In this document: positions 37,863 to 43,390 of the stretch, piece by piece
Layout of the letters: the number at the start of each line of letters is the position of its first letter
How positions within the stretch are numbered: the first letter of the stretch is position 1
Assembly: GCA_964016885.1 (NCBI GenBank)
Contig: OZ024741.1
Location: forward strand, 7,378,001-7,442,000
Length of the DNA stretch: 64,000 bases
Origin: Eledone cirrhosa
Lineage: Eukaryota
Direction of reading: 5' to 3'
Made by a program: the position numbers and the translations under genes
Notes under the pieces: model-generated
Database searches by the model: none
Told to the model about the DNA's origin: nothing
What the model saw: the letters and a program-made list of their open reading frames with translations, nothing else

Positions 37863-40800
37863 GATATCTGAACCATATGTTGTGATATCTGAACAGTATG
37901 TTGTGATACTAGAACTGTATGTTGTGATACCTGAACTGTATGTTGTGATACCTGAACTGTATGTTGTGATACCAGAACTGTATGTTGTGATATCTGAACT
38001 GTATGTTGTGATATCTGAACTGCATGTTGTGATACTAGAACTGTATGTTGTGATACTAGAACTGTATGTTGTGATACCTGAACTGTATGTTGTGATACCA
38101 GAACTGTATGTTGTGATATCTGAACTGTATGTTGTGATATCTGAACTGTATGTTGTGATACTAGAACTGTATGTTGTGATACCTGAACTGTATGTTGTGA
38201 TACCTGAACTGTATGTTGTGATACCAGAACTGTATGTTGTGATACCAGAACTGTATGTTGTGATACCAGAACTGTATGTTGTGATACCTGAACTGTATGT
38301 TGTGATACCAGAACTGTATGTTGTGATATCTGAACTGTATGTTGTGATATCTGAACCATATGTTGTGATATATGAACTGTATGTTGTGATACTAGAACTG
38401 TATGTTGTGATACCTGAACTGTATGTTGTGATACCTGAACTGTATGTTGTGATACCAGAACTGTATGTTGTGATACCTGAACTGTATGTTGTGATACCAG
38501 AACTGTATGTTGTGATACCAGAACTGTATGTTGTGATACCAGAACTGTATGTTGTGATATCTGAACTGTATGTTGTGATATCTGAACCATATGTTGTAAT
38601 ATCTGAACTGTATGTTGTGATACTAGAACTGTATGTTGTGATACCTGAACTGTATGTTGTGATACCTGAACTGTATGTTGTGATACCAGAACTGTATGTT
38701 GTGATACCAGAACTGTATGTTGTGATACCAGAACTGTATGTTGTGATACCTGAACTGTATGTTGTGATACCAGAACTGTATGTTGTGATACCAGAACTGT
38801 ATGTTGTGATATCTGAACTGTATGTTGTGATATCTGAACTGTATGTTGTGAAACCAGAACTGTATGTTGTGATACCAGAACTGTATGTTGTGATACCAGA
38901 ACTGTATGTTGTGATACCTGAACTGTATGTTGTGATACCTGAACTGTATGTTGTGATACCAGAACTGTATGTTGTGATATCTGAACTGTATGTTGTGATA
39001 CCAGAACTGTATGTTGTGATACCAGAACTGTATGTTGTGATACCAGAACTGTATGTTGTGATACCAGAACTGTATGTTCTGATATCAGAACTGTATGTTG
39101 TGATATCTGAACTGTATGTTGTGATACCAGAACTGTATGTTGTGATATCTGAACTGTATGTTGTGATACCAGAACTGTATGTTGTGATACCTGAACTGTA
39201 TGTTGTGAAACCTGAACTGCATGTTGTGATACCAGAACTGTATGTTGTGATACCAGAACTGTATGTTGTGATATCTGAACTGTATGTTGTGAAACCAGAA
39301 CTGTATGTTGTGATATCTGAACTGTATGTTGTGATACCAGAACTGTATGTTGTGATACCAGAACTGTATGTTGTGATACCAGAACTGTATGTTCTGATAT
39401 CAGAACTATATGTTGTGATATCTGAACTGTATGTTGTGATATCTGAACTGTATGTTGTGATACCAGAACTGTATGTTGTGATACCAGAACTGTATGTTGT
39501 GATACCAGAACTGTATGTTGTGATATCTGAACTGTATGTTGTGAAACCAGAACTGTATGTTGTGATATCTGAACTGTATGTTGTGATACCAGAACTGTAT
39601 GTTGTGATAACAGAACTGTATGTTGTGATACCAGAACTGTATGTTGTGATATCTGAACTGTATGTTGTGAAACCAGAACTGTATGTTGTGATATCTGAAC
39701 TGTATGTTGTGATACCAGAACTGTATGTTGTGATACCAGAACTGTATGTTGTGATACCAGAACTGTATGTTGTGATACCTGAACTGTATGTTGTGATACC
39801 AGAACTGTATGTTGTGATACCAGAACTGTATGTTGTGATACCAGAACTGTATGTTGTGATATCTGAACTGTATGTTGTGATATCTGAACCATATGTTGTG
39901 ATATCTGAACTGTATGTTGTGATATTAGAACTGTATGTTGTGATATCTGAACTGTATGTTGTGATACCAGAACTGTATGTTGTGATACCAGAACTGTATG
40001 TTGTGATATCTGAACTGTATGTTGTGATATCTGAACCATATGTTGTGATATCTGAACTGTATGTTGTGATACTAGAACTGTATGTTGTGATACCTGAACT
40101 GTATGTTGTGATACCTGAACTGTATGTTGTGATACCAGAACTGTATGTTGTGATACCAGAACTGTATGTTGTGATACCAGAACTGTATGTTGTGATACCT
40201 GAACTGTATGTTGTGATACCAGAACTGTATGTTGTGATACCAGAACAGTATGTTGTGATACCAGAACTGTATGTTGTGATACCAGAACTGTATGTTGTGA
40301 TACCTGAACTGTATGTTGTGATACCTGAACTGTATGTTGTGATACCAGAACTGTATGTTGTGATATCTGAACTGTATGTTGTGATACCAGAACTGTATGT
40401 TGTGATACCAGAACTGTATGTTGTGATACCAGAACTGTATGTTGTGATACCAGAACTGTATGTTGTGATACCAGCACTGTATGTTGTGAAACCTGAACTG
40501 TATGTTGTGATACCAGAACTGTATGTTATGATACCAGAACTGTATGTTGTGATACCAGAACTGTATGTTGTGATACCAGAACTGTATGTTCTGATATCAG
40601 AACTGTATGTTGTGATATCTGAACTGTATGTTGTGATATCTGAACTGTATGTTGTGAAACCTGAACTGCATGTTGTGATACCAGAACTGTATGTTGTGAT
40701 ACCAGAACTGTATGTTGTGATATCTGAACTGTATGTTGTGAAACCAGAACTGTATGTTGTGATACCAGAACTGTATGTTGTGATATCTGAACTGTATGTT

Positions 40801-43323
40801 GTGAAACCAGAACTGTATGTTGTGATATCTGAACTGTACGTTGTGATACCAGAACTGTATGTTGTGATACCAGAACTGTATGTTGTGATACTAGAACTGT
40901 ATGTTGTGATACCAGAACTGTATGTTCTGATATCAGAACTGTATGTTGTGATATCTGAACTGTATGTTGTGATATCTGAACTGTATGTTGTGAAACCTGA
41001 ACTGCATGTTGTGATACCAGAACTGTATGTTGTGATACCAGAACTGTATGTTGTGATATCTGAACTGTATGTTGTGAAACCACAACTGTATGTTGTGATA
41101 TCTGAACTGTATGTTGTGATACCTGAACTGTATGTTGTGATACCAGAACTGTATGTTGTGATATCTGAACTGTATGTTGTGATATCTGAACTGTATGTTG
41201 TGATATCTGAACTGTATGTTGTGATATCTGAACTGTATGTTGTGATACCAGAACTGTATGTTCTGATATCAGAACTGTATGTTGTGATACCAGAACTGTA
41301 TGTTGTGATACCAGAACTGTATGTTGTGATACCAGAACTGTATGTTGTGATACTAGAACTGTATGTTGTGATATCTGAACTGTATATTGTGATACCAGAA
41401 CTGTATGTTGTGATACCAGAACTGTATGTTGTGATATCTGACCTGCATGTTGTGATACATGAACTGCATGTTGTGATACCAGAACTGTATGTTGTGATAT
41501 CAGAACTGTATGTTGTGATATCAGAACTGTATGTTGTGATACCAGAACTGTATGTTGTGATACCAGAACTGTATGTTGTGATACCAGAACTGTATGTTGT
41601 GATATCTGAACTGTATGTTGTGGTACCAGAACTGTATGTTCTGGTATCTGAACTGTATGTTGTGATATCTGAACTGTATGTTGTGATACCTGAACTGTAT
41701 GTTGTGATATCTGAACTGTATGTTGTGATACCAGAACTGTATGTTCTGATATCAGAACTGTATGTTGTGATACCAGAACTGTATGTTGTGATACCAGAAC
41801 TGTATGTTGTGATACCAGAACTGTATGTTGTGATATCTGAACTGTATGTTGTGATATCTGAACTGTATGTTGTGATACCTGAACTGTATGTTCTGATATC
41901 AGAACTGTATGTTGTGATATCTGAACTGTATGTTGTGATACCAGAACTGTATGTTCTGATATCAGAACTGTATGTTGTGATACCTGAACTGTATGTTGTG
42001 ATACCAGAACTGTATGTTGTGATATCTGAACTGTATGTTGTGATATCTGAACTGTATGTTGTGATACCTGAACTGTATGTTGTGATATCTGAACTGTATG
42101 TTGTGATATCTGAACTGTATGTTGTGATACCAGAACTGTATGTTCTGATATCAGAACTGTATGTTGTGATACCAGAACTGTATGTTGTGATACCAGAACT
42201 GTATGTTGTGATACCAGAACTGTATGTTGTGATACCAGAACTGTATGTTGTGATATCTGAACTGTATGTTGTGATACCAGAACTGTATGTTGTGATACCA
42301 GAACTGTATGTTGTGATACCAGAACTGTATGTTGTGATACCTGAACTGTATGTTGTGATACCAGAACTGTATGTTGTGATATCTGAACTGTATGTTGTGA
42401 TATATGAACTGTATGTTGTGATACCAGAACTGTATGTTGTGATACCAGAACTGTATGTTGTGATACCAGAACTGTATGTTGTGATACCAGAACTGTATGT
42501 TGTGATATCTGAACTGTATGTTGTGATACCAGAACTGTATGTTGTGATATCTGAACTGTATGTTGTGATACAAGAACTGTATGTTGTGATACCAGAACTG
42601 TATGTTGTGATACCAGAACTGTATGTTGTGATACCAGAACTGTATGTTGTGATATCTGAACTGTATGTTGTGATACCAGAACTGTATGTTGTGATACCAG
42701 AACTGTATGTTGTGATACCAGAACTGTATGTTGTGATACCAGAACTGTATGTTGTGATATCTGAACTGTATGTTGTGATACCAGAACTGTATGTTGTGAT
42801 ACCAGAACTGTATGTTGTGATATCTGAACTGTATGTTGTGATACCAGAACTGTATGTTGTGCTACCAGAACTGTATGTTGTGATACCAGAACTGTATGTT
42901 GTGATACCAGAACTGTATGTTGTGATACCAGAACTGTATGTTGTGATATCTGAACTGTATGTTGTGATACCAGAACTGTATGTTGTGATACCAGAACTGT
43001 ATGTTGTGATACCAGAACTGTATGTTGTGATATCTGAACTGTATGTTGTGATACCAGAACTGTATGTTGTGATACCAGAACTGTATGTTGTGATATCTGA
43101 ACTGTATGTTGTGATACCAGAACTGTATGTTGTGATACCAGAACTGTATGTTGTGATATCTGAACTGTATGTTGTGATACCAGAACTGTATGTTGTGATA
43201 CCAGAACTGTATGTTGTGATATCTGAACTGTATGTTGTGATACCTGAACTGTATGCTGTGATACCTGAACTGTATGTTGTGATATCTGAACTGTATGTTG
43301 TGATACCAGAATCATATGTTGTG
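37863..43323. repeat. 21-bp tandem satellite (~260 units), probably SINE-derived
   Basis: Unit GAACTGTATGTTGTGATA(CCA/TCT/CCT/CTA); no frame-shifting indels; merges into a SINE body at its right end. Confidence 0.97.
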
Positions 43324-43390
43324 AGTTCAATACTAGAACCGGGCGGCACGTTGTGTTCTTGAACCAAATAAACTATGTTCCATTTTCCGG
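43309..43390 (+). mobile_element. 5'-truncated SINE family A body fused to the 21-bp array
   Basis: AATCATATGTTGTGAGTTCAATACTAGAACCGGGCGGCACGTTGTGTTCTTGAACC aligns with the SINE from 36519 (AATCGAAAGGTTGTGAGTTCAATTGTCGGACCGGGTGCTGTGTTGTTTCCTTGAGC). Confidence 0.75.

Follow-up and report, generated by a model that had tools for sequence, protein, structure and literature searches.

Can a long satellite array grow inside a single copy of a short interspersed element (SINE), and does the loss of a promoter box decide which repeat unit expands? The question is raised by a stretch of 64,000 nucleotides from Eledone cirrhosa (assembly GCA_964016885.1, contig OZ024741.1, positions 7,378,001 to 7,442,000 of the forward strand), hereafter the window, in which an array of a 21-bp unit runs directly into the body of a SINE. 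A preliminary description, made from the letters alone, had read this array as a satellite still attached to its parent SINE and formed by loss of the B-box core, and had proposed from it a general pathway leading from SINEs to satellites. Our analysis supports the local origin but not the pathway: we consider it probable that a 27-bp stretch of one old tRNA-type SINE flanks the array on both sides and that the array grew there in two steps, without a function. All coordinates given below are positions in the window.

The array and its two edges

The window holds the array itself, a SINE body with an intact B box at its 3′ end and an in-register remnant of the B-box core at its 5′ end. The array, the features of its 3′ side and the SINE copy used as a reference are the following:

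37870..43308, + strand: 259 units of a 21-bp monomer, equivalent to the 27-bp unit without the six bases of the B core; variants occur in blocks.
43309..43335, + strand: 27-bp parent unit inside the SINE; its B box (43325-43333; pattern match at 43325) is intact and complete.
43309..43341, + strand: two short direct repeats 27 bp apart, 43309-43314 (GAATCA) and 43336-43341 (GAACCG), the likely slippage points.
43336..43393, + strand: remaining body of the parent SINE, decayed and cut short.
36478..36623, + strand: fuller copy of the same high-copy SINE family, serving as reference, with an A box at 36490 and a B core at 36535 (pattern matches).

Tandem Repeats Finder reports the period-21 array at 37876-43324, with 259.5 copies and 93% matches. 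Parsed in register, it consists of 259 units of 30 types, arranged block-wise and without any change in unit length; mean unit identity to the consensus is 94-96% throughout, and the G+C content is 36%. One contig from the public reads (37317-37905), which may stem from the assembly's own sample, spans the 5′ junction.

On the 3′ side, the array continues at 43309 into the SINE sequence quoted in the preliminary description, and the direct contact between array and SINE body is borne out. The flank at 43310-43393 is identical to the full copy (36519-36601) in 58 of 85 alignment columns, including 14 identical bases that span the B box, and in anchored tests of two body segments only 0 of 1747 and 1 of 1749 background windows score as well. 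Beyond the six extra bases the sequence returns to the register of the array, with 8 of 9 bases matching the monomer consensus, a value equalled by 5 of 1471 background stretches when gaps of 1-15 are allowed. Removal of GTTCAA from the SINE had been said to give a 21-mer matching the monomer; the rebuilt 21-mer does agree with the consensus at 18 of 21 positions, but it occurs in its exact form nowhere in the window.

Two observations support the derivation of the array from this adjacent SINE copy, and do so more strongly than the arguments of the preliminary description. The ten bases 3′ of the B box match the monomer consensus at nine positions in the adjacent copy, as against five in the other copy in the window and likewise five when the majority letters listed from the public reads are applied, and both edges of the array keep six bases that are absent from the inner units.

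The 5′ edge can be compared with the SINE in a register fixed by the first GAAC of the array (37870) and the GAAC directly after the B box (43336), which are 260 x 21 + 6 bases apart, so that the register contains no free parameter under the preliminary description's own model. In this register, the 12 flank bases at 37851-37862 match the pre-box and B-core bases of the SINE at nine positions, a result equalled at 29 of 39,054 background positions (61 of 38,478 in a longest-extension test); the plain 21-bp register yields 3/12. With the core letters omitted, the best of 21 insert sizes is six (7/12, the next reaching 5/12). Two features can be placed on this side:

37843..37869, + strand: edge unit of 27 bp, decayed, in which the B-box core (37859-37864) is still present.
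37832..37846, + strand: A-box-like stretch, a probable remnant of the head of the parent SINE (11/15 to 36489-36503, ungapped; A-box pattern with one mismatch at 37833).

The 11/15 match of the A-box-like stretch, for which the query was picked after inspection, is equalled in 3 of 748 background windows of 50 nt. Because the 5′ edge carries both a B-core remnant and this stretch, the array likely lies inside one SINE and not beside a headless one, and the view that the adjoining body lacks its head is probably wrong. Judged from these likenesses, a remnant of the head quite probably lies upstream of the array, in which case both halves of the SINE would flank it.

The variants of the inner units add to this picture. 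The preliminary description had pointed to GAACCATATG and ATACTAGAAC within the array, including its early units. Both are indeed there, the former in five places (at 37870 and at four inner places) and the latter in nine units, the first at 37906, as well as once in the SINE. They are not independent witnesses to the origin, however. A CA state at one unit position is common to both ends of the array and found in only four inner units; CA and TG, the two states at this position, can both derive from the decay of CG, which is still present in the 3′ word at 43336-43341. Units of the TACTA type, which match the SINE, are concentrated toward the 5′ end of the array (p 0.0014). Since a TACTA-type unit stands two units beyond three of the four inner CA-type units, just as in the block at the 5′ edge, these inner units are likely copies of that one block.

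The parent family itself has A and B boxes at tRNA spacing, as seen in the full copy and in the full B box next to the array. In public sequencing runs, about 40,000 contigs per run, from two organisms, fall on the stretch of which 36478..36623 is the deepest part; the depth of the family reaches several hundred thousand times that of single-copy sequence, and unrelated A+T-rich loose ends occur at 36478-36483 in both organisms. The family is thus very high-copy and dispersed in two organisms. ARAGORN predicts no tRNA gene, Rfam gives no tRNA among 65 matches up to an E value of 1, and the best fold of the SINE is one long hairpin, not a cloverleaf. Decayed SINE copies commonly lack a match to a tRNA model. 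A 23-base pattern of the SINE was found in none of the stretches of viral contigs and in none of the metagenome contigs searched. These SINEs may resemble octopod SINEs with a CORE domain, a shared central part of 45-65 bp. OR1 of octopus is named as a CORE-SINE type in PMC4824008. Searches for CORE-domain motifs in full texts and in the supplements of PMC4758252 and PMC4824008, apart from their first files, which may hold the CORE consensus, returned nothing.

Elsewhere in the genome, the public reads contain tandem duplications of about 41 bp within this SINE family, at sites corresponding to 36483-36521 and 36561-36606, one of the sites being used in both organisms; such duplications could seed further arrays. 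The full SINE copy is followed immediately by a separate high-copy repeat (36624-36725), which in the reads is tandem with a period of about 100 bp.

Probable origin of the 21-bp unit and the proposed role of the B box

A two-step history would fit both edges of the array. In the first step, slippage or unequal exchange between the GAA(T/C)C direct repeats that lie 27 bp apart and flank the B box would have produced a 27-bp duplication; in the second, an inner copy would have been shortened by the six bases of the B core, the deletion having one base of microhomology. Unequal exchange would then have multiplied the resulting 21-bp unit, in part block by block; the two outer units, tied to the unique sequence next to them, would have retained the six bases. 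The six-base words that bound the parent unit are identical at 4/6 positions, which makes them short and imperfect repeats of little weight on their own; the first array unit reads GAACCA. The duplication junction of the 21-mer thus likely falls on the GAA(T/C)C repeats and not within the B box, with the loss of the B core likely being a separate inner deletion. In a unit of which one third is B box, that loss may well have been an accident of a small deletion, not a requirement for growth. A hairpin loop behind the six-base deletion is not indicated, as 146 of 200 shuffled sequences fold as well. Both edges keep the longer ancestral unit, so that a single locus reveals the sequence of steps, first duplication, then inner deletion, then expansion.

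Several observations weigh against this history. The 5′ match was spotted by eye before testing and rests on 12 bases; the whole 27-base edge unit matches at only 15/27 positions, and because of this low match the edge copy must be regarded as old. The A-box remnant lies 26 bases before the 5′ B core and not 45, which is 19 too close and calls for a further loss of about 19 bases. The head in the undeleted register matches at only 11/36 positions, and alignments of the whole head to the 5′ flank are not significant (p about 0.25 and 0.05-0.22). Around the parent copy we found no convincing target-site duplication, the single candidate being a 7-base, low-complexity word. Of the two junctions, the check in the reads covers the 5′ one. 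Neither an empty allele nor an orthologous locus came to light, coverage of the unique flank being absent from both the second organism and the reduced-representation run X5. Finally, what appears specific to the adjacent copy may be specific to a subfamily: the window holds one other copy for comparison, and the majority letters from the public reads cover 40 of 128 variant places. One mixed loose-end consensus from the reads is close to the 21-bp monomer.

Another history starts from the same parent SINE. Here, the 5′ flank would be the undeleted head as far as the anticodon stem, the 21-bp unit would have been laid inside the head by one event with two template switches, and the B-core likeness at the 5′ edge would be due to chance. 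The A-box stretch together with GGCTT at 37858 does align to 36489-36516, and this core version of the head, chosen as a query afterwards, reaches p 0.007-0.025. However, the seven bases at the start of the array then stay unexplained and two small gaps are needed, and versions with the whole head remain at the p values given above, as against a gap-free fit of the 27-bp register at p ~0.001. We therefore regard the single event as unlikely and retain the two-step history.

The preliminary description went further and, in a manner compatible with a local origin, proposed a rule: either junctions form at the B box, or arrays containing B boxes are purged, so that only B-less units expand. The rule drew on a second array in the window:

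1..9855, + strand: array of a 60-bp unit (164.8 copies) from the head of the same SINE family; the A box is kept, and the unit stops at the third B-box letter.

The relationship of this 60-mer to the SINE family is upheld. Its consensus is identical to the SINE head in 42 of 62 columns, a score that none of 3000 dinucleotide shuffles and none of 214 background windows attains; the significance is confined to this targeted test, as 5 of 40 base shuffles reach the score in a looser comparison with the whole unmasked window. The unit spans the SINE from its 5′ end to the third B-box letter, and the array contains 129 matches to the A box and no B box. At its visible 3′ end there is no SINE body (the score being only 16), and its other end lies outside the window. 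Two long arrays in the window thus derive from one SINE family.

Their lack of an intact B box was only partly confirmed: the 60-mer and all 259 expanded 21-bp units are without one, but the locus keeps the full box at 43325-43333. The rule can point to the B core kept in both edge units and lost from all expanded ones, to the junction of the 60-mer inside the box, to the limpet satellite discussed below, which is SINE-derived and without both boxes (PMC11121367), and to the fact that a six-base loss removes five to six core bases in only 3 of 27 placements; by hand arithmetic, a strict combination chosen afterwards could reach p ~0.02-0.09. Yet a six-base loss touches the nine-base box in 14 of 27 placements, and the complete box is missing from 43-82% of random 60-mers (element length 150-350 nt), so that two B-less short monomers arise by chance with a combined probability of 22-43%. 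The duplication junction of the 21-mer lies outside the box. Six joints of the 'goes back' kind on the SINE family, among the 15 of 602 joints listed, include none that cuts inside the B box (36535-36543): four of them, which are probably related, fall in the body beyond the box, another takes in the head but not the B box, and the last, 137 bases long, extends across both boxes. These joints may be short duplications instead of arrays, and they test the position of junctions better than purging. Also in the window, arrays of 41-bp and 40-bp units have neither an A nor a B box and no SINE source.

Other taxa provide further evidence on this point. Common retention of B boxes in SINE-derived monomers had been named in advance as an outcome that would count against the rule, and box B is part of the commonest SINE satellite unit of snakes, whose loci can hold up to 320 and nearly 950 copies (PMC10702118). 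A tRNA-like tandem family of newts is transcribable in vitro (PMC10702118), and AluJ and AluY have no positional hotspot for tandem repeats (PMC3389668). Taken as a general pathway, the rule is quite improbable.

A more specific form of the idea treats the locus as a gate on satellite birth. On this view, the 27-bp unit with its B box would have been duplicated but have stayed at two copies, its B-less derivative alone reaching 259, and the neighbouring 60-mer would have expanded with no Pol III box other than the A box; in this genome, TFIIIC-binding arrays would accordingly be blocked or purged, and loss of the B box would license growth. If true, this would tie the binding of RNA polymerase III (Pol III) factors to which repeats can grow. 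We consider the gate distinctly doubtful. Among the papers listed by a literature search on this subject, none deals with the B-box-loss idea, judged by titles and abstract openings.

Less likely still is an origin elsewhere, in which recombination at a seven-base word common to both would have brought the array next to an unrelated SINE, the remaining likeness being a coincidence. The absence of the exact rebuilt monomer, the three of 21 consensus positions that differ and the 5/10 match of the other family copy after the box can be cited for it. But it needs two more coincidences, the in-register return on the 3′ side (5/1471) and the match at the 5′ edge (29/39,054), and the read depth does not call for a second locus. 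The summed contig depth on the first units is 1054 and 2174 in two runs of one sample, compared with 4.9-5.7 on the unique flank, or about 215-380-fold, and a unitig simulation of the 21-bp array alone gives 1130-1270-fold; the observed depth lies below the simulated one, and no further locus is therefore needed, with the reservation that contig depth is not copy number and that cleaned contigs differ from unitigs. In the second organism (X1, share 0.08), depth is found on the repeats only and is zero on the unique flank and the array, and in X5 both the locus and the unique flank are without coverage. We therefore hold an origin elsewhere to be very unlikely.

A protein-coding repeat or an artefact of the assembly is a scarcely credible reading of the array: open frames of 1867 aa (+) and 1914 aa (-) do run across it, but they follow from a period of 21, a multiple of 3, the distinct substitution types by codon position 1/2/3 (10/7/5 in the + frame and 7/10/5 in the - frame, by hand count) have no third-position excess, and against an artefact stand the contig across the 5′ junction and the 30 unit types arranged in blocks.

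Other repeats of the window

With 76 tandem-repeat rows in the window, the region makes arrays from many sources. The unit of the 41-bp array (31637-34391) matches a stretch at about 18252-18330 in the long frame of a long interspersed element (LINE), with a score of 44 that none of 300 shuffles reached (best 42) in a heavily gapped alignment; this array is possibly a third element-derived one, from a source without Pol III boxes. Its derivation from the element at 36624-36725 was weak (64 of 1500) and was dropped. The 40-bp array (55481-64000) has at least 213 units, each containing an inverted repeat, and no source of its unit was found within the window (113 of 300 shuffles).

The LINE-type element is 5.6 kb long and present as a head-to-tail direct duplicate (15747-21366 and 21366-26999; 97.7% identical). 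Its first copy has a frame of 1163 aa with endonuclease, reverse transcriptase and zf-RVT domains, preceded by a frame of 615 aa without a Pfam match. The pair starts at the end of a 16-bp array, and a short GTCTG word is common to its start, joint and end, a possible sign of an element that targets repeats.

A second SINE family occurs at 35385-36132 (-), 43631-44011 (+) and 28100-28287 (-) as runs of three to four partial tandem copies. A third tRNA-like element, at 31100-31480, has what appear by eye to be decayed internal repeats, one of them with a full B box at 31272. An element at 12786-13753 resembles a miniature inverted-repeat transposable element, its inverted ends of 321 bp, 96% identical, being set between TA runs and a direct duplicate of 105 bp lying immediately beyond them, and the sequence at 51166-52503, with inverted ends of 126 bp and internal hairpins, is likely a non-autonomous DNA transposon.

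Relation to known SINE-derived repeats

Tandem repeats derived from SINEs are already known, and the locus is a clear single example of a known process. The nearest described systems are the SINE-derived satellites of squamates (sSats), with units of 70-290 nt and often in multi-locus families (Vassetzky, Kosushkin and Ryskov 2023; PMC10702118), and the single-locus minisatellites derived from human elements, among them 2663 Alu-derived cases (Ahmed and Liang 2012; PMC3389668). Among the papers listed by literature searches, none is a study of SINE-derived arrays in cephalopods, and the present window adds an invertebrate-type genome in which two long arrays come from one SINE family.

Like sSats, the 21-bp array consists of an inner SINE segment repeated as hundreds of homogeneous units, with a terminal unit that runs into the SINE. 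In the terms used for sSats, its unit resembles part of a SINE (18/21), the middle monomers number 259 where at least four are asked for, and a terminal unit continues into the SINE on the 3′ side (58/85 columns) and probably on the 5′ side. Minor sSat variants that keep both SINE ends are a further likeness (PMC10702118). Unlike sSats, it has a unit shortened by an inner deletion and apparently occupies one locus, whereas the main snake unit keeps box B. At 21 nt, moreover, the unit is far below the sSat range of about 70-290 nt, and for this reason we file the array as a long SINE-derived minisatellite, apparently a single-locus one.

With the human minisatellites it shares expansion in place within one element copy and, as far as its own origin can be reconstructed, initiation at direct repeats; in the human set, 300 of 7276 element-derived tandem repeats are flanked by direct repeats of 5-20 bp, a published route of initiation (PMC3389668). 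In keeping with the definitions of that study, the unit exceeds 20 bp and resembles the element over a full period, and short direct repeats (4/6 identical, weak alone) bound the first unit. The human Alu cases differ in size, with a mean of about 2.3-2.4 units against 259 here, and an array of 36% G+C with 93% matches falls below the filters applied in that study (PMC3389668).

Two further systems invite comparison. A system described in 1998 and cited in PMC9659126 also involves a short unit expanded from inside a SINE; there, in contrast, the unit has six bases, the SINE is 7SL-derived and many loci are involved. PcH-Sat of the limpet Patella caerulea (PMC11121367) is likewise a molluscan satellite related to a tRNA-type SINE and without boxes A and B. 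It differs in being a 179-bp, pericentromeric satellite that makes up about 10% of the genome and comes from the part of the SINE beyond the promoter, with no parent copy shown in place in the portion of the paper considered, whereas the 21-bp array is still joined to the SINE copy from which it appears to derive.

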